Positions 1-12,530 of a DNA stretch of 64,000 bases are shown one piece after another (within the stretch, counting starts at the first letter, position 1; each line of letters begins with the position of its first letter). The notes under the pieces were generated by a model, which saw nothing but the letters and a program-made list of their open reading frames with translations, ran no database searches and had not been told where the DNA came from. Location of the stretch: positions 1 through 64,000 of the forward strand of contig JANRJA010000170.1 of assembly GCA_033764315.1 (NCBI GenBank), read 5' to 3'. The stretch is from Oculatellaceae cyanobacterium bins.114. GTDB taxonomy: Bacteria; Cyanobacteriota; Cyanobacteriia; Elainellales; Elainellaceae. A program made the translations under genes and the position numbers.

Positions 1-24
1 GCGGTTCAAGTCCGCCTCCTGGCA
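1..24 (+). tRNA. 3' end of tRNA-Phe(GAA); the 5' part lies outside the window; attL of the integrated element
   Basis: GCGGTTCAAGTCCGCCTCCTGGCA is a T-arm plus acceptor 3' strand; the longer copy at 12373 carries the anticodon arm GAGGA-CTGAAAA-TCCTC. Confidence 0.85.
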
Positions 25-255
25 TTATTCCTCGACTGGGAAAACAGTGTTGCAGTTAACGCACTCAACAATGTACTCAGATTCATCTTCATCAACCACT
101 ACGCCAGCTTCCCATCCATGATTTTCAAGGCATAGTGGGCAGCTTCCATCTGGGTATTGCTCACATTTCTCCTGAGCTGTCATTACTTCACCATTGTTTT
201 TTATGAAATAAGTCATCTTGTTTACCTGCGTAGTAGAGCAATTAGTCAAGCTCAA
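25..255 (-). CDS. Small CxxC...CxxC zinc-ribbon protein (start uncertain)
   Basis: CPLC and CVNC motifs; stop codon abuts the att repeat. Confidence 0.5.
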   Translation of the reverse strand: MSLTNCSTTQVNKMTYFIKNNGEVMTAQEKCEQYPDGSCPLCLENHGWEAGVVVDEDESEYIVECVNCNTVFPVEE

Positions 256-350
256 AGGCTCGATTTTCCGTTGTCAGTAGCATCGATGCTGAACGAGAGA
301 ATGAGGCTTTCAGACCATAACCGAGCGGTTATATAGTCCAAATTTAGTCC

Positions 351-1259
351 TTAGAATTCTGGGATGTTAATGATCCGGTTTCTTCCCACGTAGTGTTCGT
401 AAAGAACCTTTACAGAAACTCGTCCCAAATAGGACACATCTTGAGGGCTAAGGTGGTTCAACGCTTCAGTAAGCCAGGTATGACGGCAATGGTACTGACT
501 CAGGTAGAACGCGATTTTCCCTTCATCTACCAATCTCTCTACAAGTGGTTTCCAATGCCGTGTCTGAAAATTTTTGTAGTCAAATTCCCCTCCCTCGATG
601 CCAGTAAAAACAGGTGATTTACGATCGCACTGGAGATGATACAGGTCAGCTAAAAGGTCTTGAAGCCTTTGATTACAAGGAAAGCGAGTGCTTTTCCCGT
701 TTTTGGTGCCCTGCCGGATCTTCACATCGATGGGCAATGCTTCCTCAAACAGGATCTCTTTAAAGCCACCCGCGATATGTCCCCACCTCAGTGCGGCTGC
801 TTCCTCTGGACGGCAACCCGTCCAAAAAAGGAACTTCACCCAGTGGGAGTAGAAAAAATCATGCTTGTCAAACTCCTCAATGATGCGATCGCGTTCCTCA
901 ACCGTGAACGCTGCCCATGCTTTCTCGCCTGGTTGCTTGGCTCTTATCTGTCTAGCCAAACCGTCAAACGGGTTGAATTTGATGATGTTTGAAAACATTG
1001 CCCACCCTCCACACGCCTGGAGCTGGACCAAGGTACGGCGTGCTATCTCTGCTGAGTAGTGTTGCATGAGGTAGTCTCGAATCTCAACACTTGTCGCCAA
1101 CAGTGGGGCAATCGCGTTCATCTTCTCCAGCCGTCGAGTAATTTTTTGATAGTCCCGTTGGTAAGTAGATGGTGCAACCTGCCCGCGTCGAAACTCTGTG
1201 TACTGAGTCCACAGTTCACAGACCTGGATGGGATTAATTGAACGTCTCCTATCGTTCAT
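351..1259 (-). CDS. int: Tyrosine recombinase/integrase
   Basis: TGCRPEEAAALRW (catalytic R), TKNGK, YHCRHT, C-terminal HY tyrosine; next to the att site. Confidence 0.93.
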   Translation of the reverse strand: MNDRRRSINPIQVCELWTQYTEFRRGQVAPSTYQRDYQKITRRLEKMNAIAPLLATSVEIRDYLMQHYSAEIARRTLVQLQACGGWAMFSNIIKFNPFDGLARQIRAKQPGEKAWAAFTVEERDRIIEEFDKHDFFYSHWVKFLFWTGCRPEEAAALRWGHIAGGFKEILFEEALPIDVKIRQGTKNGKSTRFPCNQRLQDLLADLYHLQCDRKSPVFTGIEGGEFDYKNFQTRHWKPLVERLVDEGKIAFYLSQYHCRHTWLTEALNHLSPQDVSYLGRVSVKVLYEHYVGRNRIINIPEF

Positions 1260-1504
1260 CCATCTCTCAACTCTTGTATCTTTGACAAAGCTTCATTTCT
1301 TAACTGATTTACTCGCGTGATTTCGTGCCGTTTGACCTGGTGTGAGCACCGACCATTCATAAACCGCCCTATTAAACTGAAGTAGTAAGCTTCTCTCACT
1401 TCCCAAAACATCAACTCCATAGACGATGACTTGGTTGGTGGGGGAAGAGGGTTTATGACAGGCTCAGGAACATAAGTAAGCAGGTCTAACTGAGTGTGGT
1501 TCAT
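1256..1504 (-). CDS. Hypothetical element protein
   Basis: 4-bp overlaps with both neighbours suggest translational coupling. Confidence 0.6.
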   Translation of the reverse strand: MNHTQLDLLTYVPEPVINPLPPPTKSSSMELMFWEVREAYYFSLIGRFMNGRCSHQVKRHEITRVNQLRNEALSKIQELRDG

Positions 1505-1791
1505 CGCTTGCCCTCATGTGGGAACTCTGCGGTTCTAAGCTTTTCCTCTAAGACCGCGATCGCCTTGTCGCTTAGTAATTGCCTCAACATCCACCACTGA
1601 CGCGCCAGGGGGCGATCGCCAATCATCCTTCTTACCTGTGCTTCCTCTCTGCCTTTACGCACGAGAGCCACGATCGCCCATGCCACTAATCGGGGGGTGG
1701 GGTCACTGCCTTTCAACTGGCATCGGGTGATGTGAATTTGGATGCTGGTGAGGGTATCTAGGAGGTCTATCACTCCGTAGTCTCCTTCCAA
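1501..1791 (-). CDS. Hypothetical element protein
   Basis: Lies in the same operon, between the replicase and the integrase. Confidence 0.55.
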   Translation of the reverse strand: MEGDYGVIDLLDTLTSIQIHITRCQLKGSDPTPRLVAWAIVALVRKGREEAQVRRMIGDRPLARQWWMLRQLLSDKAIAVLEEKLRTAEFPHEGKR

Positions 1792-3221
1792 GGGGGATCG
1801 AAATGGCTCAAACCCTCTACAGGCAATGTGTTACACCCTGTTTCCTCAAAATTCCAGCCCTGAAACCACCTCGAACCCTTATCAGAGCTAGGGTTACACT
1901 CCCTTTCAGACAATAAGCTTTTAGCGAATTCTCGCTCACTCGCTCCTTCAGAGCTAGAGTGAGCAGATTCGATATTTCCAGAGGGGGGGTGCGGGGGGGT
2001 TTTCCACAGGTGCCGAGGGTGCCAAAGGTCGATGTGATATTCGTGGTAAAGCGTCTCACCACTGAACCCAAATTCCGTGGTTAAAACCGTGAATCTCTCC
2101 CTCGTTTCTGCGGGTAAGCGTCCCTGGTTCAGGAGCTGGGCGATCGCAAAGCAGATCCTTTCTCGTGCCCTTGCCTTGTGAAATTGGTTCCATTGGTTGA
2201 CGGCTGCCTCAACAGTCGTCGGCTCCGGTTCCTTCTTGCTCTCCCCATAGGGGTAATATCGGGAGTTCTCTACACACCGTACCCACTCCTCAGCCCGTTG
2301 GAAAATTTCATGCTTATGCCTACACCACTCGTGATAACCAGGTGCTCTGGTAGCCACTTTCACGATTTCCAGCACCAGGCGTTCACCCTCTAACGGCTTG
2401 CCTCCCACCAGGCGATGCCCAAACACATACGATCGTAGAGTGATGCGACCGAGTAGATAGTTTGTCTGCCCTGGACCTGTCCACCCTGTTTCTATTTCGG
2501 TGTTGAGGTCGTTAAGGAATTTTTCACCCTTGTAACCCAACTTGAAGTAAGTCCGGGTTGCTTCCTTGAGAACTCTGTTAAATAAGACCTGATTGATCTG
2601 GTTTCGTCGTTCGCACCAACCCCATTGACGACAAAACTCAATCTGAGTAGACCATTTTGGTGCCCACCAATCATCGAGAATGTAACTACCCGTTTGCAGT
2701 GGGAGGCGATGCCCTTTATAAAGTGAGGTGCCTCCCTCTGCGTCGTAGTTGCGAACGTTGGGGAAGATTTCTAGTAACCCATCCTCAACCATGAAGCCTT
2801 TATATTTGAGAATTTGGGCGACGACGGCGGCAATCTGCCAGGTGAGGAGAGGACGAGGTAACGGGAAATAGATATGGATTCCACCGCTGTAACTGCTGGT
2901 GATGGCGATGTGGTCGGTTATACCCAAAAGTTCTAAGGCTTCAATAATTCGTCCGGTTGCGAATCGGTCACGCTTGGGGTGATAGGGTGAGTTTCGATCA
3001 ATGTCAAGCATGAAATAGCTGGTTTCTATGCCAAACCTCACACCATATAGGTATTTACCCTCTTGTAGGTGTCGATCGCTGAGTGGGTGCCTGTCTTCGG
3101 TGTGCCACTCGGTTTTCTCACCTGGTTGGTGATGGGGTGCCCAAAGGTAATCCCATCTGTGGGGGAATAGCTCAAGAAATTGGTCTGTTTCGGGAATGTA
3201 ACGAGATAATGTGTTCGTCAT
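1770..3221 (-). CDS. Putative replication protein with an archaeo-eukaryotic primase (AEP/prim-pol)-like N-terminal domain
   Basis: hhhDhD motif (FMLDID), SxSGGxHhY motif (SSYSGGIHIYF), later HRLPLQ; no Walker A helicase domain seen. Confidence 0.7.
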   Translation of the reverse strand: MTNTLSRYIPETDQFLELFPHRWDYLWAPHHQPGEKTEWHTEDRHPLSDRHLQEGKYLYGVRFGIETSYFMLDIDRNSPYHPKRDRFATGRIIEALELLGITDHIAITSSYSGGIHIYFPLPRPLLTWQIAAVVAQILKYKGFMVEDGLLEIFPNVRNYDAEGGTSLYKGHRLPLQTGSYILDDWWAPKWSTQIEFCRQWGWCERRNQINQVLFNRVLKEATRTYFKLGYKGEKFLNDLNTEIETGWTGPGQTNYLLGRITLRSYVFGHRLVGGKPLEGERLVLEIVKVATRAPGYHEWCRHKHEIFQRAEEWVRCVENSRYYPYGESKKEPEPTTVEAAVNQWNQFHKARARERICFAIAQLLNQGRLPAETRERFTVLTTEFGFSGETLYHEYHIDLWHPRHLWKTPPHPPSGNIESAHSSSEGASEREFAKSLLSERECNPSSDKGSRWFQGWNFEETGCNTLPVEGLSHFDPPWKETTE

Positions 3222-3288
3222 TTTTTACGTACCGGTTCACACACACATAAAAGAGGCGATCGCCGTTTTACCGACGATCGCCCAATTT

Positions 3289-3546
3289 CTAAGCTTCGAC
3301 TTTTGTTAGAGGTAGCCTAACTACCTTCATCTCTTCCCTGGTGTTCATCTGCATCACGCAGGCATTACAAAGCAGTGCCCAAACAAAATCAGCCTCATCC
3401 CCATAAAAATGCTCTGTCTCTTTGTTGCCAAGCCAGATAATCAACTCTCTATCTTTGTCGGTGTCATCCTCAGTTGGAGTGTAATAGTGAGCCTGACAAA
3501 CTGCCTCAAGATTGATGATGGTGTTTCTAACTCGAAATAGTTGCAT
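3289..3546 (-). CDS. Hypothetical protein, first gene of the leftward operon
   Basis: ATG start with AAGGAA upstream; 85 aa. Confidence 0.6.
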   Translation of the reverse strand: MQLFRVRNTIINLEAVCQAHYYTPTEDDTDKDRELIIWLGNKETEHFYGDEADFVWALLCNACVMQMNTREEMKVVRLPLTKVEA

Positions 3547-3588
3547 TGTGCTATTCCTTTAAGTAGGTGGATTAGTTTTGTCAAAGTG

Positions 3589-3619
3589 AAGGGCATCCCT
3601 CGGCGGGGGTGCCCTTTTT
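3589..3619 (+). terminator. Intrinsic terminator-like hairpin
   Basis: AAGGGCATCCC...GGGGTGCCCTT followed by a T-run. Confidence 0.55.
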
Positions 3620-3761
3620 AGTGCGAGTGTGGTTATCCGTCTAAGCAATCTCCTGTAACGAAATGGGTAGCAATTGGATCATTTGGTATGCACAGCAAGG
3701 GGTAGCGATGACCGTCAAAGCCCCTCGCTGTGCTGCACTACCAAAACATGAGGTCTAAGAA

Positions 3762-4022
3762 ATGAGTGAATGGATGGCTTTAAACGCCGAAGATGTGATA
3801 ACTGTTGACACTGGCAAATTTGCTTGTATGAACTCTCCAACATTCAAAGCATCTGAATTGTTAGAGAGAGCTGATGCTGTCTTGGTAGCCAGGGGGCAAT
3901 TTCCTGGATTAACTACAGAGGGGCAATCATGCAAAGTGCTTAAGCCAGGGGACAACTGGCAACGGGTCAAAGTCAGAGTCAAGGTTGAATTGACTGTCGA
4001 GTACACGATCGAGGACCAATAA
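3762..4022 (+). CDS. KGK-domain-like cyanobacterial protein
   Basis: EGQSCKVLKPGDNWQRVKVRVKVELTVEY resembles the KGK-family C-terminal pattern. Confidence 0.6.
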   Translation: MSEWMALNAEDVITVDTGKFACMNSPTFKASELLERADAVLVARGQFPGLTTEGQSCKVLKPGDNWQRVKVRVKVELTVEYTIEDQ

Positions 4023-4037
4023 CAAGTTCAGCTATGC

Positions 4038-4071
4038 AAGCAGTCAGATTCCCCCATCTGGCTGCTTTTTT
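4038..4071 (+). terminator. Intrinsic terminator after the KGK-like gene
   Basis: AAGCAGTCAGAT/ATCTGGCTGCTT stem followed by a T-run. Confidence 0.65.
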
Positions 4072-4096
4072 GGTTTATATAAGTCACCTCCTTTGA

Positions 4097-4258
4097 AACC
4101 TCAAATGATTTGAGGTTCAATATTTTGTAGTGCGAGTAGATCTAACCCTGACTCGCACCACAGCCCTAGAAAATGAGCTAAACCTAATTTACCTCAAATC
4201 CTTTGAGGTAGATCAAGTTTTCCTCAAATTCTTTTACCTATATTTGATTTGAGGTAAA
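4097..4258. promoter_or_regulatory. Repeated palindromic operators ACCTCAAA-N3-TTTGAGGT upstream of the Xre gene
   Basis: Palindromes at 4097-4117 and 4190-4210; further half or degenerate sites at 4221-4229 and 4235-4256. Confidence 0.75.
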
Positions 4259-4519
4259 ATGAGAGATGAAGCGAATCCTAATTCTGTGTTTGTTCAACTT
4301 AGACGGCAGTTAAAACTCACTCAAAAGAACGTTGCTGATGAATTGGGCATCAGCGAACAGACCGTTCGTAACTGGGAAAACGGAAAAACTACCCCACAGT
4401 TGACCATTCCCCAGATGAAACGCCTATGCAATTTGCTGCAACGTTCTTTAGAGGAAGTGCCTGACTATTTCGGACCTATTGAAAATGCCGATCACATAAA
4501 TGCGATCGGCATGAATTGA
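4259..4519 (+). CDS. Xre/Cro-family HTH transcriptional regulator
   Basis: LRRQLKLTQKNVADELGISEQTVRNWENG is a classic HTH_3 motif. Confidence 0.9.
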   Translation: MRDEANPNSVFVQLRRQLKLTQKNVADELGISEQTVRNWENGKTTPQLTIPQMKRLCNLLQRSLEEVPDYFGPIENADHINAIGMN

Positions 4520-4620
4520 GATAAGGAGGTGAACTAACTAAAACTTGCTTTGAATTCTGGAGGAGGGTGAATGCTTGGCGGCTCCCCTCCTCTTACCCCG
4601 TTTAAAGGAGCAATTTGATC

Positions 4621-4995
4621 ATGACACGAGCAAAGACAATCATTCCAATATTGCTTTGGGCATTTTCCCAAGGCGTTTTTTTGTCCGGTTGCATTGATGA
4701 AACGACAGCATCAACCAGTTCACCAAGAACAGCTCTGGTTGTAAACGGTGAACCCGTTACAGAATGGCGACAAATCACCAGGGATGAGCACGATAAACTC
4801 ATGCGCTTGGCAGGTGGATTAGATGAAATCGGTCGGTTTAAGAACCCCATCCTCTTAAGTGATGTGGGGCTATCTCCAAGCACAGCTAACGGCTGGCTGT
4901 TAATGCGGTTCAACTGGGACCCAACGAACGGCATTGCCGTGAACGTTGAGGATGGGTATCTAACCCAGTCCATTTTCTATATTCCCCGTCAGTAA
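4621..4995 (+). CDS. Putative lipoprotein
   Basis: Hydrophobic signal ending in an LSGC lipobox; AAGGAG RBS upstream. Confidence 0.6.
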   Translation: MTRAKTIIPILLWAFSQGVFLSGCIDETTASTSSPRTALVVNGEPVTEWRQITRDEHDKLMRLAGGLDEIGRFKNPILLSDVGLSPSTANGWLLMRFNWDPTNGIAVNVEDGYLTQSIFYIPRQ

Positions 4996-4996
4996 A

Positions 4997-5410
4997 TTGA
5001 GTGAGGAGAACAGACATACTATGATGACATCGAACCCGATCGCTCAATTTACTGAAGCTGTGCTCTACGTCCTTGATTACCTGGTAGAGGGTGAGAAGAA
5101 GAGAACCATTCTTCAACCTGTTGACGCTGAATATGGCGTAATCCTTGAAGAAACATCTGATGGGAGTGACCTGATGAGAGGGTTACTTGCCAATGGGAAA
5201 CGTATTTTTGTTCCCATGTCACAAGTCCTTCATGTTGAAGAATGGAAGGTTCAAGTTAAAGCAGGTTATCTCGGCAGCGGCAGCCGGACGCTTCATCTAA
5301 ATGAGAAACAGATGGAACGTCTGGTTAACAATTTCCCACGCGATCAGGAAACTGGAGAGGTGAAGGGAATTGCCAATTTTGAAAAGGTAGAGCGGGACAA
5401 GAAAGAATAG
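4997..5410 (+). CDS. Hypothetical protein (probable start ~5021)
   Basis: ORF directly follows the lipoprotein gene; GAGGAG lies upstream of the internal ATG. Confidence 0.55.
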   Translation: MSEENRHTMMTSNPIAQFTEAVLYVLDYLVEGEKKRTILQPVDAEYGVILEETSDGSDLMRGLLANGKRIFVPMSQVLHVEEWKVQVKAGYLGSGSRTLHLNEKQMERLVNNFPRDQETGEVKGIANFEKVERDKKE

Positions 5411-5502
5411 ATAACGGCTAACATAGTGCTCAAAGACACCACTTCTACTAACCTTCCTCATGGAAGGTTTTTTTGTTGGGTCATTTGTCCCCAGTTGGGT
5501 AC

Positions 5503-5829
5503 TCATTTTTGTGGCCGCATGGGTTTTAGGCACGTCCAAACAGTTCCTTGTTTTGTGCAACCCAAATCTTGAAACAACTTGGGCGATCGCTCAGATACCT
5601 TCTGCCCACTGCAAAATCTATCTTCTACTGCTTCCTCTGAGATGGAATGATTGGGATTTATCCAATCACCCCAAACTGTTGTCTTAATACAGTTTTCCTC
5701 AAAACTATAGTCAGTTAAAAAACTAAATCCCCAACCATAAAAAACCCCTTTTTCTTCATTTGTGAAAATTTGTATTGCTAGAGTTGGGATGAAAATCAAA
5801 CCGATAATTACAAATAGTAATCTACGCAT
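5503..5829 (-). CDS. Small membrane-anchored or secreted hypothetical protein
   Basis: N-terminal hydrophobic helix, Cys-containing C-terminus, AT-rich sequence. Confidence 0.5.
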   Translation of the reverse strand: MRRLLFVIIGLIFIPTLAIQIFTNEEKGVFYGWGFSFLTDYSFEENCIKTTVWGDWINPNHSISEEAVEDRFCSGQKVSERSPKLFQDLGCTKQGTVWTCLKPMRPQK

Positions 5830-5838
5830 AAATCCTGA

Positions 5839-8010
5839 TTGATGGTTGAATCAAATCGTGGTGATTGTCCATTCGGAAGTGAACCCCGACCCAACGCCGA
5901 TCCAAATGCGGGTGTAATTGCCTTTGCCGATTTAGGAATACCGACCAGACCACGGGGAACTGGTCCAACAAGGATAGGACCGTTTCAATTTAACGATAAT
6001 GGCGCATTCCTTGATGTGGCAGACCTGACATCAGGTGCATACGACTTTAATATTGTTTATGTTGATGACCTCACTGGTTTTTGTAGCAAACCACCTCCCA
6101 CAGCTAACCAGATTTTAGATGTCAGTGGCTACCCTGATTCTGTACTAGCCCTCTTTAGAGAGAAAGCAGCGGCGATCGCGGCTCGACGGTGGAATCAAAA
6201 CTGTATCTGTGCCAGTGGCACCCCTGACCCGAACGCTTGCCGATATTGGGGAGGTAGGGGGCAATGCCCTGGCACTGCTTACGCATGGGAGGTAAATTAT
6301 TCAATCTCTCAATACAACACTATTGACGGCTCGTTCATCCAAACAAACTCAGCAGGGGGAACTTATGGATTGCCCCAAAATGGGAAGTTGTACTACGGAC
6401 CGATCGGGAGTCCACAATTTGTCGTCCAAGATGGCATCGCTAAATATATAGTGACCTATTACGATGACCCATTAGGGCAACAACCCAACACAGTAGATCT
6501 CACCCCATCCGCTAACATTGACCAAAATCAAGGTGTTTTTTACTATGTTTTCGATACCTTTGCCGCTTCCAACATGAGGGCAATCTTAGGGCAACGTGAT
6601 GATTGTTGCTCTACACCTCCAGCCCCACCCGATTACAACGATGACGTAGAAGATCCCAACAACATCATAGAAATTGATGGACCCGACTCACCCACAGGAG
6701 AACCCTTGACTATTATCGTGTTGCCCCTTCCCGGCATTGAAGGCGCACCAGGCGCACCAGGCGCACCAGGTGAACCAGGTGTTCCAGGGTCAAGAGGACC
6801 ACAAGGGGAACCAGGCATTCCTGGACCGCAAGGACCAGAGGGACCGAAGGGCGATCAGGGGAACCCTGGACCACCAGGTGAGCCTGGACCGTGCCCTAAT
6901 ATCACAGGAAGCCTTCAAATAGTGACGGAAGAACAGCCGTCACTAGAAGTAGAGAAGGTTGGACCATGCGATTATCTATTCAAATTTGCATTAAGAAATG
7001 AAGAAATGGAAGAAGTAATTATACAAGGTGTATTGAATATACAGAACTGTGATGGAAGTACTTTGTCAGTTCCATATGAAGGCAAAAACTTTGTAGGATT
7101 ACAGTCATTCTCACAGTCACTTTCAACAGCTTTGAAAGTGATGTCAGAGAATCAGTGTCCAGAAATAAAAGGTAAGACTGAACTACCAAATTGTTTTGAT
7201 TCAGAAGAAGATGCAAATGTCTTTATAGACACATTGGTAAGCTTCATAGTAGGTAAAATTGTAGACTTAGTAATTCTCTATTTTACAAAAGGAAAAGCAA
7301 CATTAAATCCTGTCTTAATGGAGTTTTTGAGTGCTCTAATTACAAATTTAATTATTGATATATTAGGCAGATTCATAGAAGCAACAACGGCACCACCACC
7401 ACTAGAATATGAAGGATATGGAATTTTAGGAATCAATAACAGAATCACCAATATAGAAACAATGCTGAAACAAATTGGTGAAGCTACATGTCCTGTAAAG
7501 CCACCTGAAGGAAGATATGAACAACCCAGTTGTATGGTGCTTCTACCATCAGAGCAATACAACGAATTCCAAATCATCAAACAGTTAATCATCACTTTCG
7601 GTTTGAATTACCCTCAAGATGTTGGTTCAAGATGGCATATTCACATTCCCGACCCAATAGACGGATTAAATTGGTGTACACACTTCGACAGCTTACAAAG
7701 AACTGTTGTGAATCGTGATTCTGAAACTCGTTATAGCGGGCGTATTTTTTGGGCAAATACATCGTTGTGGACGGGGGGTTACTTTGCCGGACGTGATGAA
7801 GCTAAAGAATTCTTAGAGCAAATTGCACAATTATCAAAGCTCACTCCCTCAGCTATCCGCATCTCCGAGAAAATACGTCCCGGTGGTCAATCGCTTGATG
7901 TATCGTCTCGTGATGTCAGAGCAGTGAGAGCCGTTGTTTCTCAACGTGCCGAAGATGAAGAAACAGCAGATTTAATACTATGTCTTGCCCCTCCTAAAGA
8001 GGGTTGTTAG
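5839..8010 (+). CDS. Large collagen-repeat protein, putative virion spike or attachment/entry protein
   Basis: 18 Gly-X-Y triplets (6733-6894), Cys-rich domains, two hydrophobic/amphipathic segments. Confidence 0.75.
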
Positions 8011-8215
8011 CGTTGTCATAGTCGGGATTCGTTGCCACGTACAACCGTCCCTTAAACTTTTTAGCCACAATCACACGCGACCTTAAAAGCGTCTTCACCT
8101 GGTTGCGAGTGTAAAAATTTTCCTTAAGCCATCTCGATAGTGGCACCAGTTGCAGCGATCCATCAGATCTACACCCCTCACAATAAAAATTGAATCGATC
8201 AGCAGGTGTAGGCAC
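7994..8215 (-). CDS. Small winged-helix (excisionase-like) DNA-binding protein
   Basis: [38 protein letters not shown] fits a Xis/HTH_17-like pattern. Confidence 0.5.
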
Positions 8216-8346
8216 AATTGACCCTCTTCTATTTCTGTCTTGTCGTATCTTACATACGACGATATCCTTCTTTGTGTCTTCTGTTGGCTCTAACTCAGTC
8301 AGAGAGCATACTTGAGAACAACTGTACTTAATTATTTGGGAACATT

Positions 8347-9123
8347 ATGACTCTAGCTATTGAGTATTTTAGTACCTCAGGAAATGCCACTGCTGCGGGT
8401 GTTTATATCCCGATCGCATCCCTACCAGGCTTAACATCTACAGAGCTTGAGAGTGGTGATGCAGATAAAGAGAGCAAAGTGCTTTTAGCTCTATGCAATA
8501 AGATTTTTGATGTATTGAACCCTACAAACTTTGACAAGCTAGGGTTTGCAGTTACCAAAGGTCAACCGACCGGGGCAGGAACTGACATCATCAACCAAAA
8601 CTACAGCTATACCAATACGTTTGTAGTCAATCATGCCGCTAACACTTTACTGCAAATTCCAGTCCCCTCATCAGGGTCATTCTCTGATGTTGGAAAATTC
8701 CGAATCGTTGAGGTATTCCCCAATGCGGTGGCAGTTGCAGCGAGTGGATCAGTCGCGGGCGCAGGTATCGTCATTAATGCATTGACGGCATATGGTGGAC
8801 CCACTCAATCAGAGGTTAGTAGTTCTATCGGTGATGCAGATGGCGACGATCGCCAGTGGTTTGCAGCACTGCTACAAATGCTGGTGAACGATTCCACCGT
8901 TCGCACAACTGACACTGCATCAGCCGTTATCGTAAAATCTCGCTCTAATGCGGCTGGTGTTGCTCCGTCTACGGCATTTACTGATGCAACCAACCCCACC
9001 ACTGGCATCACATCGGCTCAGTTGCCTTTGCGCTCATTCTTTAGCATTACCTATTCGATCACGTTGCAATTGGCTCTAAATCAAGCAACACAGACCTTTG
9101 ACGTCAGACACGTCACAGCATAA
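8347..9123 (+). CDS. Unknown protein with an internal duplication; candidate major structural protein
   Basis: A/G/T/S-rich; first gene of the putative late operon; two similar halves. Confidence 0.65.
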   Translation: MTLAIEYFSTSGNATAAGVYIPIASLPGLTSTELESGDADKESKVLLALCNKIFDVLNPTNFDKLGFAVTKGQPTGAGTDIINQNYSYTNTFVVNHAANTLLQIPVPSSGSFSDVGKFRIVEVFPNAVAVAASGSVAGAGIVINALTAYGGPTQSEVSSSIGDADGDDRQWFAALLQMLVNDSTVRTTDTASAVIVKSRSNAAGVAPSTAFTDATNPTTGITSAQLPLRSFFSITYSITLQLALNQATQTFDVRHVTA

Positions 9124-9175
9124 TCGTTTGATTTTCAGTTCTAACCAATAAAACACGATTGAGAGGTACTTAGAT

Positions 9176-9892
9176 ATGCCAAATATGGCAGTGGGTTTGA
9201 TTCCTACCTATTCCGATGATTTAGGTAGAGCGGTCACAGATGTAAGGTTTAAGATTCGAGGTGACAAACTACAGGTTTCTGGGTTTGGGCTTGCTCCGGC
9301 TGGTGGGTGCACTGGCACAGGGAATTTATTCACGCTACGTCACGCAGTGGCACAATATGCTGACGGCAGCACGATACGATATCCCATTGATAACCCTGTA
9401 AATACCATCACAGTGGTTCAAGCAGCGGTTGCGGATGGTGCGGTCTGCGTTCACGTTGAGGGTGAACGTTGGTCTTTCATTCCTCCTAACATCGTAGGAG
9501 CACAGGGAGGGAATCAGCAGACTTATGTGGTTAACCCTGGATTCGCTGACAAAGAAACGGGTCTATTCACATACAACTCCAATATCGTTGGAGCTGGGGT
9601 AAATGCTCGGTACGCGATCGAACTTTCACCCACTAACATCTCTGATGCGATTCGTGGCTGTCTCACTGCTCCGGTGGTCGGGACGGCTCCATGCTCTCTA
9701 GCAGGCGGAACCACACCCCGTTACTTGACTGTGTTAGCCAATAAGTTGGGGGGTGGACAAGTCGCACGACAGGCAAAGGTCAGTGATTGGGGTCTTCCTG
9801 TACGTACCTGTGCGGCTGCTCTCTATGCCGTTGGGTTCTGCGTCAAATATCAGGGTGAAAGTTATCGTAATGCTCACTTAGTATTGCCATAA
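9176..9892 (+). CDS. Unknown protein with an internal duplication; candidate structural protein
   Basis: GAGAGGT RBS; halves end CVHVEGE and CVKYQGE. Confidence 0.65.
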   Translation: MPNMAVGLIPTYSDDLGRAVTDVRFKIRGDKLQVSGFGLAPAGGCTGTGNLFTLRHAVAQYADGSTIRYPIDNPVNTITVVQAAVADGAVCVHVEGERWSFIPPNIVGAQGGNQQTYVVNPGFADKETGLFTYNSNIVGAGVNARYAIELSPTNISDAIRGCLTAPVVGTAPCSLAGGTTPRYLTVLANKLGGGQVARQAKVSDWGLPVRTCAAALYAVGFCVKYQGESYRNAHLVLP

Positions 9893-9893
9893 G

Positions 9894-10262
9894 ATGCTTG
9901 AACAGCAATTGAGACAACTTAGCAAATTTAGATTTGCTATCACCTACCCTAAATTGCCTGGATTTATTCTCAGGCTCAATTTTGAGCCTATTATCCTTAG
10001 TCACAATATAGAGGGCAATTATGCTCTTTTACATTGGCAAGCGATGCCAAAGGGAGAAAGAAGATGGGGATGTTTTTGCATGAAAGATGGTGAAACATCC
10101 TATCAATCTTTCATTGAATTAAATCCAGTTTCAGGGGTCACTTTAAGAGGTATTCAAATCGATGAAACCTTCTTTACTTTTGTGCCTACTGCCGTCATCC
10201 ATTGTCCAAACTGCTTTCTATCTGTTGATGGGGATTTCGGGATTCTTAAATTGATTGAATGA
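9894..10262 (+). CDS. Hypothetical element protein
   Basis: Tightly packed in the operon; HWQAMPKGERRWG motif of unknown meaning. Confidence 0.6.
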   Translation: MLEQQLRQLSKFRFAITYPKLPGFILRLNFEPIILSHNIEGNYALLHWQAMPKGERRWGCFCMKDGETSYQSFIELNPVSGVTLRGIQIDETFFTFVPTAVIHCPNCFLSVDGDFGILKLIE

Positions 10263-10978
10263 CGTGGAATCTTGCATACGATGGTGAGATAGATGTTTTG
10301 GCACTGCAATGTCAACCCTTTTTTATTGACACTGTTGTAGGTCAAAGATTGGTGATTTGTGCTGATAATCCTTTTGCTCAACCAAATTGGAATGTTGCAT
10401 TTTATCTAACAGTAATCACAACAATTTCAGACTTTCAAGGAACTGTGATTCCAGTTGAAGCACTCAAGCAAACGATTAGTTTAGGAGAAAACGCATATGT
10501 AGAAATACCTCAGTTTGTAACAGTTTATAAGCTGAAATTAGAGTTCCCTAAGTGGCATAAAGGCATGAAGCTTCAAATATGGGCACAAGAGCTACAGATA
10601 TCAGGTGAATTCTTCTCAGCCGAAACACAATCAGCGGTCGTCTCAGGACAACCCTTAATTCTTCAAATAACTGGAAAATTGGCTCTTGCAAGAAATGATG
10701 ATTTCGCTCTTTCCTTTGCAACCTGCTTCGGTGCCAGTGATGCCAATCCAACCGAACCCGCAAGCTATATCACCGAAGGGCAAATTTTTAGAGGTGATTG
10801 GAGTCCTGTAGTAGGGGTGCCTTCACTCATCCCAGGGGCAACTTACTATCTTGCTTCGACACCAGGCACCATGAGTGCGATCGCACCAACCGACCCCGGT
10901 TATGTGGTGGTGGCACTCGGAAAAGCCTTGACCACAAACCTGTTCGATATCGAAATTCAATCCCCAATTCTCTTATAA
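10259..10978 (+). CDS. Two-domain virion accessory protein (C-terminal decoration/fibre-like domain)
   Basis: C-terminus is paralogous to the next gene (PGATYYLAS..PG...AP...VVALGKAL). Confidence 0.6.
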   Translation: MTWNLAYDGEIDVLALQCQPFFIDTVVGQRLVICADNPFAQPNWNVAFYLTVITTISDFQGTVIPVEALKQTISLGENAYVEIPQFVTVYKLKLEFPKWHKGMKLQIWAQELQISGEFFSAETQSAVVSGQPLILQITGKLALARNDDFALSFATCFGASDANPTEPASYITEGQIFRGDWSPVVGVPSLIPGATYYLASTPGTMSAIAPTDPGYVVVALGKALTTNLFDIEIQSPILL

Positions 10979-10980
10979 CT

Positions 10981-11463
10981 ATGGCTCTCATTAAACCTCT
11001 GGTCATCATTAATGGACTTGTTCAACAACTCTCAGCGGCTGACACCCTTGATGCTGCTGTATCAGAGGTAGATGTAGTTTCCCTTACCAACAACCAGGGA
11101 ACCGCAGTGGTGATTGGTACTCCCGTCTATTCCAATGCCACTGGACAATACCGGAGCGCACAGGCTAACGCAAGCGGAACTGTTCAGGTTATTGGATTGG
11201 CAAAGGATGTATCAGTTGCTAACGCTGCATCAGGACTTGTTCAAACCGATGGTGTGATGGTCGCAACTACAACTCAGTGGGATGCTATAACCGGACAAAC
11301 AGGGGGGTTAACCGCTGGCTCTCCCTACTTCCTCTCAGCTTCGACCGCTGGCAGGCTAACTGTAACGGCTCCCTCTACCGTTGGTCAATTCGTCGTTCGC
11401 GTAGGAATTGCTCTGAGTGCCACTCAAATGGATATTACTGTTCAACCTCCTATAGGGCTTTAA
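10981..11463 (+). CDS. Virion decoration/fibre-associated protein (DUF2190-like)
   Basis: ATG at 10981; G-x-PVY...VIGLA...GLTAGSPYFLS...VVRVGIA pattern seen in phage accessory proteins. Confidence 0.6.
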   Translation: MALIKPLVIINGLVQQLSAADTLDAAVSEVDVVSLTNNQGTAVVIGTPVYSNATGQYRSAQANASGTVQVIGLAKDVSVANAASGLVQTDGVMVATTTQWDAITGQTGGLTAGSPYFLSASTAGRLTVTAPSTVGQFVVRVGIALSATQMDITVQPPIGL

Positions 11464-12131
11464 TGACTCGTTTCTTGGCTATAGTAAGCGGTCGTCCAAC
11501 GATGACAGACCTGGCAGTGCGATCGGCAGGTTTCATCATGCCGCGCATTCGTGCCACTCCCCTCGCTGCCTTTATCCTTGAGTACGATGGTTATTGGGTG
11601 CAATTGAGCGGTGATAGCACTCCTAGAACGATCGGCAATGCCTCATCAGGAGCGGCAACGGCTCAAAGCTGGACGAGCATTCTATACACACTCATTTGGA
11701 ATAATTACACACAAACTCAGTGTCCAGTCCTCACATCTGGGGGGGGTGCTTCGACGAGAGGGGCAAGTGCTAGTGCAGACTATTCAGCTAATAAACGGCT
11801 CACATTGCCTGATTTTAGGGGGCGATCGCTCATTGGAACCGGGACCGCTCCCAGTGGGACTACCAGAGTTGCAGGGGATACGATCGGTTTAGAGAGTGTA
11901 ACACTCACCACAGATCAGCTTCCATCGCACCGTCACAGACTAAATGCTTTGGGTACAGCAGGGGGTTCATTTAGAAATGTGAACGTTGCGACGGCAGGAA
12001 CCCTTGATCAATACGTTGATTCATCCGGTGGAGCCGCCTATGTTGAAAATACGGGTTCAGGACTTCCATTCAACATCATTCAACCTTGTCACGTTGTTGA
12101 CTACTGGATATCGGCAGGAGCACGAGCATGA
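11463..12131 (+). CDS. Phage tail-collar/fibre-family protein
   Basis: LTLPDFRGRSLIGTG, GLESVTLTTDQLPSHRH and ENTGSGLPFNIIQP motifs; TAATG coupling to the upstream gene. Confidence 0.75.
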   Translation: MTRFLAIVSGRPTMTDLAVRSAGFIMPRIRATPLAAFILEYDGYWVQLSGDSTPRTIGNASSGAATAQSWTSILYTLIWNNYTQTQCPVLTSGGGASTRGASASADYSANKRLTLPDFRGRSLIGTGTAPSGTTRVAGDTIGLESVTLTTDQLPSHRHRLNALGTAGGSFRNVNVATAGTLDQYVDSSGGAAYVENTGSGLPFNIIQPCHVVDYWISAGARA

Positions 12132-12373
12132 CCAGTGACAGTCTAGAAATATTAGCAACCGTTTTGGGTATCACTTCGCTGATTGCGGGGGGGATTGCCT
12201 GGTATCGTGGATCGGTTCAAAAAGCCTATGCCGCAGAACGTGAGATGGGGCATATCAAGCAAAACCTTCAACAATTAGGGCAGGGTTTAGGCTCAATCGA
12301 CAAGGAACTTGAGGAACTTAATCGGGTGATTGTCGAGATTAAAGCGTTAATATTGGCACAGACGAGGCATTAA
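12128..12373 (+). CDS. Holin-like small membrane protein
   Basis: One N-terminal TM helix plus a coiled coil; last gene of the operon; ATGA overlap. Confidence 0.5.
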   Translation: MTSDSLEILATVLGITSLIAGGIAWYRGSVQKAYAAEREMGHIKQNLQQLGQGLGSIDKELEELNRVIVEIKALILAQTRH

Positions 12374-12422
12374 GAGGACTGAAAATCCTCGTGTCGGCGG
12401 TTCAAGTCCGCCTCCTGGCATT
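12373..12422 (+). repeat. attR: duplicated 3' part of tRNA-Phe (anticodon arm to 3' end)
   Basis: AGAGGACTGAAAATCCTCGTGTCGGCGGTTCAAGTCCGCCTCCTGGCATT; lacks the acceptor 5' strand and D-arm. Confidence 0.92.
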
Positions 12423-12530
12423 TTTAATTGCTATTGTGTCGTGTAAATTTTAGGAAACCGCAGGTTTACCCTTGCTTCTCAGCAATGAGATGTCAAGATC
12501 AAGATAAGATGCAGCCTGTTTCGAGATCTT

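Follow-up and report, generated by a model that had tools for sequence, protein, structure and literature searches.

In phage lambda the gene D precedes the gene E, and the coat protein of the MS2-type leviviruses is an interlocked dimer with a sheet across its dyad and two helices on one side, this coat being defined by the basic RNA-binding face of its sheet and by an RNA genome. Decoration proteins are accessory, have a cementing role and can bear immunoglobulin-like (Ig-like) add-ons, and PMC7602432 lists beta-tulip, beta-tadpole, OB, Ig-like and knotted helical folds for them. Small tail-less phages with a double jelly-roll capsid include PM2, NO16 (265 residues) and phiCjT23 (239 residues), and an FtsK/HerA-type packaging ATPase is conserved in Varidnaviria (PMC13552765). 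The subject of the present analysis is a gene, here called CAP1 (open reading frame (ORF) 8347-9123, forward strand), in a 64,000-nucleotide stretch of DNA (contig JANRJA010000170.1, hereafter the window) from Oculatellaceae cyanobacterium bins.114, where it sits in a 12.4-kb element flanked by a 29-bp repeat at the 3' end of tRNA-Phe; the next gene downstream is called CAP2. When the three structural readings considered below are summed, the role of CAP1 is likely to be virion-structural. CAP1 consists of two diverged copies of a domain of about 105 residues, which are predicted to form an interlocked, chaining pseudo-dimer, and we give roughly even chances to the specific proposal that it has an accessory part in a particle, as a cementing or outer-layer protein.

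The internal repeat of CAP1 and its single-unit relatives

The initial annotation, made from the DNA sequence, had proposed that CAP1 is a major virion protein fused from two diverged halves. Self-alignment of the single sequence is modest: for cuts at 100-130 it scores 51, shuffled sequences averaging about 30 (z 4.0-4.4; 3-15 of 3000 shuffles equalled the score), and for a cut at 135 z is only 1.8. Homologs were gathered, 17 at first and then 142 clusters at E <= 0.001, and 141 full-length homologs were aligned, with fragments, fusions and one half-length match excluded. Comparison of half against half as profiles gave 26% with 17 sequences; with 141, the profile of residues 1-108 or 1-121 matched the remainder at 94% (E 1e-7, score 44.2, 99 columns), the best score among 60 column-shuffled controls being 15.5; the internal repeat is confirmed. 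Three of the four pairings originally made by eye lie in the profile register, namely AGVYIP with AGIVIN, the two long helices, and NYSYT with TYSIT. The pairing of the two GDAD motifs is not homologous: G162-D163-A164 is gapped in 137-138 of the 141 homologs, and in the first motif D38 is kept in 15 and D40 in 11.

Half-length relatives comprise 54 proteins of 102-147 residues, and single-unit genes of 101-125 residues sit in the CAP1 slot of other elements. Of the single unit's motifs, unit 2 retains FP and DxR (D167 in 134 and R169 in 139 of 141) and unit 1 retains KxxPxGxG..NQ; unit 2 has also acquired an insertion of some 22-25 residues. A quick tree (96 rows, 117 columns; a thorough tree search is incomplete) was built from every fifth of the 141 doubles, halved and with the insertion removed, alternate members of a set of 53 singles, and 11 paralogs; in it N halves, C halves, singles and paralogs are each separated by one branch, with support of 98, 98, 89 and 96, respectively. 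Judged from the sequences, one ancient doubling event fits this tree, and the doubling would be compatible with self-duplication as well as with fusion of two paralogs. The profile repeat, the single-unit relatives and the tree, together with the model and covariation register described below, bear out the fused pseudo-dimer.

Single-unit paralogs of a further family, c13 (profile match 97%), lie directly upstream of fibre-like genes in relatives (loci with L numbers: L011:5380-5724, L056:11376-12094, L062:4750-5193, L068:9363-10063, L126:8214-8986), sometimes as two adjacent genes; these are possibly vertex or fibre-base pieces. At L015:9456-10638 a single-unit and a double-unit CAP1 are adjacent to each other beside a holin-like gene, and this locus also has two tandem genes of c3, a CAP2 type introduced below, as do L116 and L127. 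A second family of the CAP1 slot, g3, exists both as singles of 79-83 residues (L104:675-914, L126:2259-2510, L127:6315-6566) and as tandem doubles of 167-181 residues with visibly similar halves (L068:3635-4138, L090:975-1481, L109:2133-2639, L123:10327-10839). Comparison of its profile with that of CAP1 detected no homology, and the doubling of g3 is, on sequence grounds, a separate duplication arising in the CAP1 slot.

Predicted fold and self-association

The CAP1 monomer was modelled with a mean predicted local distance difference test score (pLDDT) of 97.8 and a predicted TM score (pTM) of 0.93. Each unit has one helix of 14-17 residues and 5-6 strands; unit 1 is made up of short strands, a short helix, a 17-residue helix (41-57) and strands at 67-78, 81-95 and 100-103. 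In the model, strands of one unit run antiparallel to their homologous partners in the other, meeting them across the dyad (83-241, 91-233, 95-229; 18-142, 20-140) in a register backed by covariation, and the result is one sheet with two helices covering one face. The opposite face is open and lined by Ser, Thr, Asn and Gln (0.60-0.91 at alternate positions), with no basic face. Searches of solved structures with Foldseek and VIA-align returned no match to the model, an absence there that does not exclude a family, and the earlier suggestion of an uncharacterised fold is thus supported at the level of the model; many of the weak, non-significant fold matches are tail terminators.

Prediction of three copies gave a score of 0.64, against 0.00 for the best of three controls, with contact agreement of at least 85% between runs and pLDDT of at least 92, so that self-assembly of CAP1 is predicted. 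Among proteins of solved structure, 20 of 30 pairs and 1 of 23 single chains come up to the mark used for self-association, rates that are only approximate here. The best three-copy model shows an open chain, its middle copy bound to a neighbour on either side, and no ring, although this is one prediction and a ring may yet form. Interface A is formed in both partners by residues 92-101, 148-150, 177, 181, 199-207 and 227-234, and the second interface, again in both partners, by residues 27-28, 51, 71-82 and 244-252; the two predicted patches are self-complementary, and are equivalent to each other under the internal repeat.

It is proposed, then, that the two units interlock as a pseudo-two-fold dimer of one sheet and two helices, and that each end would bind the like end of a neighbour to give an open ribbon. 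Single-unit relatives would act as homodimers with two equal ends, and fusion would have allowed the two ends and the two halves to specialise. The ribbon may be laid upon a shell made mainly by the product of the CAP2-slot gene, much in the way that capsids are stapled by decoration proteins, and some relatives may use it to display C-terminal add-on domains. The particle would be the product of a tail-less, virus-like element, and CAP1 could be abundant on it.

Slot occupancy and the role of CAP1

Members of the CAP1 family were found in 9 of 401 genomes, in 5 of 57 and, with paralogs and weak matches counted in, in 22 of 401. The named homologs and the Atlas taxa point to a cyanobacterial host. 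Gene order is conserved over 32 loci: the large spike-like genes come first, followed by a small, basic and divergently oriented gene, by CAP1, and by one of two CAP2 types, by which the subtypes c2 (that of the window) and c3 (its sister) are defined. This order and the att flanks of the element support a place for CAP1 at the head of what is probably the structural operon of a virus-like element. Both subtypes have CAP1, and both have the large gene's C-terminal domain; profile comparison of the c2 and c3 proteins detected no homology. In charge, c3 is basic (+4 per 100 residues) and c2 neutral; the CAP1 family has a net charge of -10 +/- 5, positive in none of the 141 homologs. The c2 protein has four invariant cysteines, and its single-unit paralogs c8 and c5 (profile matches 95% and 80%) lie just downstream of c2 in most relatives (e.g. 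L011:11221-12044) and are missing from the window's element. The CAP2 slot at L063:5488-6030 holds a third, basic family of 180 residues after a 244-residue CAP1, and at L016:10115-10733 the c3 gene appears as two overlapping ORFs of 134 and 104 residues, a frameshift or a natural split.

Slot occupancy was assessed by searching for the CAP2 types, so that loci were not picked by CAP1; among the same 401 genomes, c2 was found in 12 and c3 in 50. From the latter, 37 c3 elements were examined (30 returned loci and 7 more fetched), several of the genomes being close kin, so that the counts are not independent. In 6 of them the slot contains CAP1 proper, and all 6 had been inputs to the c3 profile; g2 occupies it in 17 and g3 in 7, and it is empty in 7. 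The g2 protein, a divergent single unit, is probably homologous to CAP1, to judge from a weak profile match that rises above shuffles, from its enrichment among weak matches, and from its occurrence also in the paralog position. The c2 loci with an ORF number 11, a twelfth match having been dropped for stops. An accessory role is favoured by the slots that are empty in 7 of 37 c3-type and 1 of 11 c2-type elements keeping the downstream gene, by the displacement of CAP1 to beside the holin-like gene in L015, by the c13 paralogs ahead of fibre-like genes, and by the acidic charge. It is favoured also by the long C-terminal extensions present in 3 of 142 CAP1 matches, of which two contain a choice-of-anchor R domain (E 3e-37 and 1e-39) and one of these two also gives a weak Ig-like match. 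Because CAP1 is dispensable, acidic and mobile, and has surface-type add-ons, decoration or cementing fits it better than the part of sole coat; the claim that it is the major capsid protein is weakened by the same empty slots and charge, and further by a CAP2 that is neutral or basic and whose sister type is wider (50 of 401 against 22 of 401 genomes).

Several observations weigh against the cementing proposal. The particle itself is a prediction from genes and models. Covariation exceeded z 2 in 3 of 16 tested interface pairs (25 listed), and may in these reflect within-chain contacts, while interface A is conserved below average (entropy 3.04 against 2.44 bits). Of the seven elements with an empty c3-type slot, five carry a related or same-slot-type gene elsewhere (a c13-type paralog in 3, a g3 gene in 2), and the two with none detected, L116 and L122, may be incomplete or inactive. 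The c2-type slot is filled by CAP1 in 10 of 11 elements and empty in one, 9 of those 10 having first been found through CAP1. The predicted polymer, and the occurrence of CAP1 in both subtypes, between whose CAP2 genes no homology was detected, are features that a main coat might show, and together with the place of CAP1 as first in the operon, the lack of a known capsid gene in the element, and single-unit paralogs beside fibre genes that could serve as end or vertex pieces, they speak for the view, that of the initial annotation, that CAP1 is the main coat, its dimer ribbons winding into a helical tube or closing into a shell. The Ser/Thr-lined sheet would then face a genome condensed by a basic partner, either the CAP2-slot protein or the small divergent gene. 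That the slot is empty in 8 of 48 elements, that no member was detected in the fetched stretches L116, L117 (which starts at a contig end) and L122, that CAP1 is acidic with no basic face to its sheet, and that the slot families c0, g2 and g3 diverge fast when the c3 gene is readily found, make this only a tentative alternative; codon bias is indecisive between CAP1 and CAP2 (CAP1 higher in 11 of 26). Equally tentative is the wider conjecture that virions of a kind not seen in any solved structure are built from CAP1, its ribbons winding into the tube or shell of widespread, never-isolated small temperate cyanobacterial DNA viruses that need neither terminase nor ATPase for packaging. The existence of both single and fused forms would then represent, in an unrelated fold, a step like that from single to double jelly-roll.

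The hydrophilic, acidic sheet might instead line the channel of a DNA-delivery tube, or CAP1 might form the base of a fibre or spike, as a low-copy part; the paralogs immediately preceding fibre-like genes and the tail terminators among the weak fold matches point this way, and we consider it improbable. Hardly more probable is a role outside the virion, as an assembly scaffold or a host-interaction protein, or in a satellite or integrative plasmid that itself forms no particle. The window's element yielded no gene for a capsid, portal, terminase or packaging ATPase, no CAP1 match was found in 50,697 phage records, and a relative is maintained as a circular plasmid in Microcystis NIES-298, its viral nature left open by the authors (PMC12510456). 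Against this, endolysin genes (CHAP, peptidase M15) occur in relatives, as do conserved genes of collagen- and fibre-like type, homologs are present on 3 IMG/VR contigs and one BFVD viral protein matches, and the add-on domains suggest display at a surface. The preferred assignment remains that of an accessory cementing or outer-layer protein.

The element and its comparison with known systems

The features of the element are collected in Table 1. CAP1 was correctly placed as the first gene after a gap of about 130 bp, 131 bp from the start (8215) of the divergent gene; the 7-bp inverted repeat within this gap is a putative operator or terminator, and the divergent gene, from its charge and position, is likely to encode a DNA-binding regulator. 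The small-residue-rich composition that had been remarked upon is real (Ala, Gly, Ser, Thr and Asn make up 47%) but does not by itself distinguish CAP1, because two fibre-like genes of the same element are similarly rich (48-49%).

Table 1. CAP1 and other features of the 12.4-kb element (positions in the window)
Feature	Position	Strand	Remarks
CAP1	8347..9123	+	258 aa; net charge -7; pseudo-dimer of two fused units
Unit 1, residues 1-108	8347..8670	+	the unit closer to the single-unit relatives (profile match 99%)
Unit 2, residues 122-258	8710..9120	+	unit 1's elements repeated; single-unit profile match 91%
Unit-2-only insertion, ~22-25 residues (~203-228), conserved NPxTG	8953..9030	+	adjoins predicted interface A
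Divergent intergenic region, 131 bp	8216..8346	.	7-bp inverted repeat at 8242-8260 inside
att repeat, left	1..29	+	28/29 bases same as 12397-12425
tRNA-Phe (12346-12420) with att repeat at 3' end	12346..12425	+	element's right end
Tyrosine integrase	351..1259	-	phrog_1, E 2e-25
Helix-turn-helix (HTH) repressor	4259..4519	+	Pfam/PHROG search
723-aa collagen-repeat protein, spike- or fibre-like	5839..8010	+	C-terminal domain common to both subtypes (89%)
73-aa basic gene, divergent from CAP1	7994..8215	-	same position in many relatives
CAP2, 238 aa, family c2	9176..9892	+	single-unit paralogs in relatives; rival main-shell candidate
Three fibre-/decoration-like genes (239, 160, 222 aa)	10259..12131	+	222-aa gene matches PHROG 8763 tail protein, E 3e-19
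81-aa holin-like gene, N-terminal hydrophobic segment	12128..12373	+	inferred from sequence and position

The contig starts exactly at the left att repeat, so that the left flank lies outside it; an assembly break at this point may reflect excision or a repeat. Ahead of the repressor lie two 19-bp repeats, nearly palindromic (4098-4116, 4191-4209), which are likely operators. The replication gene is exchangeable: an unclassified 483-residue protein at 1770-3221 in the window, and VapE-type or DnaB/AAA_25-type helicases in relatives (e.g. L013:4135-6705, L121:1852-4335, L122:15812-17413). The C-terminal part of the 239-residue gene product and the 160-residue one resemble, by eye, paralogous cement- or fibre-type domains (10259-11463); the latter has a weak Phage_cement_2 match (E 0.017, below cut-off). 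Pfam and PHROGs searches at E 0.1 found no HK97 coat, portal or terminase gene among the 19 ORFs of the element, and an HK97-fold head module of the Caudoviricetes type was rejected; there was one small-terminase HTH cross-hit on the repressor, and PHROGs gave two single weak matches across all 141 CAP1 members. A Walker A motif is absent from every ORF of at least 80 residues in 1-12425, and no packaging ATPase was found there. Among relatives, a HerA-like P-loop gene adjoins L016 and L119, and unclassified Walker A genes adjoin L116 and L122; these edge genes encode 441-495 residues (L016:1491-2972, L119:757-2082, L116:11069-12508, L122:12187-13674), and the L016 and L119 proteins are related (31%), that of L119 having weak HerA/FtsK matches.

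Of the cyanobacterial genomes searched, about one eighth yielded elements of this group (c3 50/401, c2 12/401). Since no annotated capsid or packaging gene was found in the window's element or in plasmid P1 of Microcystis aeruginosa NIES-298, prophage finders that rely on such genes are likely to miss these elements or to call them plasmids. CAP1 offers a confidently modelled structural marker for the group, with a fold for which solved structures give no match, and some of its named homologs come from cultured hosts, NIES-298 among them. Were CAP1 the coat, it would represent a new virion architecture; were it cement, it would extend the set of five folds given for decoration proteins, and its relatives would provide a natural single-to-fused series in which to study the evolution of pseudo-symmetry.

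The NIES-298 plasmid (NZ_CP046059.1) encodes a two-unit homolog of 218 residues, WP_103113464.1 (E 2e-10 with the N profile, 2e-12 with the C profile), in the same slot as CAP1 ahead of a CAP2 homolog, and this is apparently gene 4730 of PMC12510456. The model also matches BFVD A0A7G9A4T0 (216 residues, 'Bacteriophage sp.') at E 5e-12 and TM 0.65/0.76. The MS2-type levivirus coat and the baculovirus VP39 tube offer an architectural analogy only, that of dimers building shells or tubes. Neither surfaced as a structural match in the Foldseek and VIA-align searches, and identity with a levivirus coat was rejected on the Ser/Thr/Asn/Gln-lined open face and on an element that is integrase-bearing DNA. 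Double jelly-roll proteins share with CAP1 a similar length, two homologous units and a small temperate element without tail hallmarks, but where those have two eight-stranded beta-sandwiches next to each other, the units of CAP1 are modelled as helix-on-sheet and interlocked about a two-fold axis. On the model, this topology (one helix and 5-6 strands per unit, strand pairing at the dyad) rules out that architecture; the same searches listed no solved double jelly-roll capsid protein, an absence that does not exclude the family. CAP1 departs from Varidnaviria also in the packaging ATPase not found in its element; its three-copy prediction is an open chain, although this is one prediction and a closed trimeric, pseudo-hexameric capsomer may yet form. 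The decoration proteins differ from CAP1 in that they are usually trimers, where CAP1 is predicted to chain and has no HK97 capsid to bind; its alpha/beta interlocked dimer fits none of the five fold names, a separation made by name, and decoration-fold structures were not listed by either search, which again is not exclusion. CAP1 lies just ahead of a candidate coat gene, as D lies ahead of E in lambda. Like lambda gpD, T4 Soc and the P30 cage of PRD1 (PMC7602432), it would be accessory and likely surface-bound, and some of its homologs have add-on domains.
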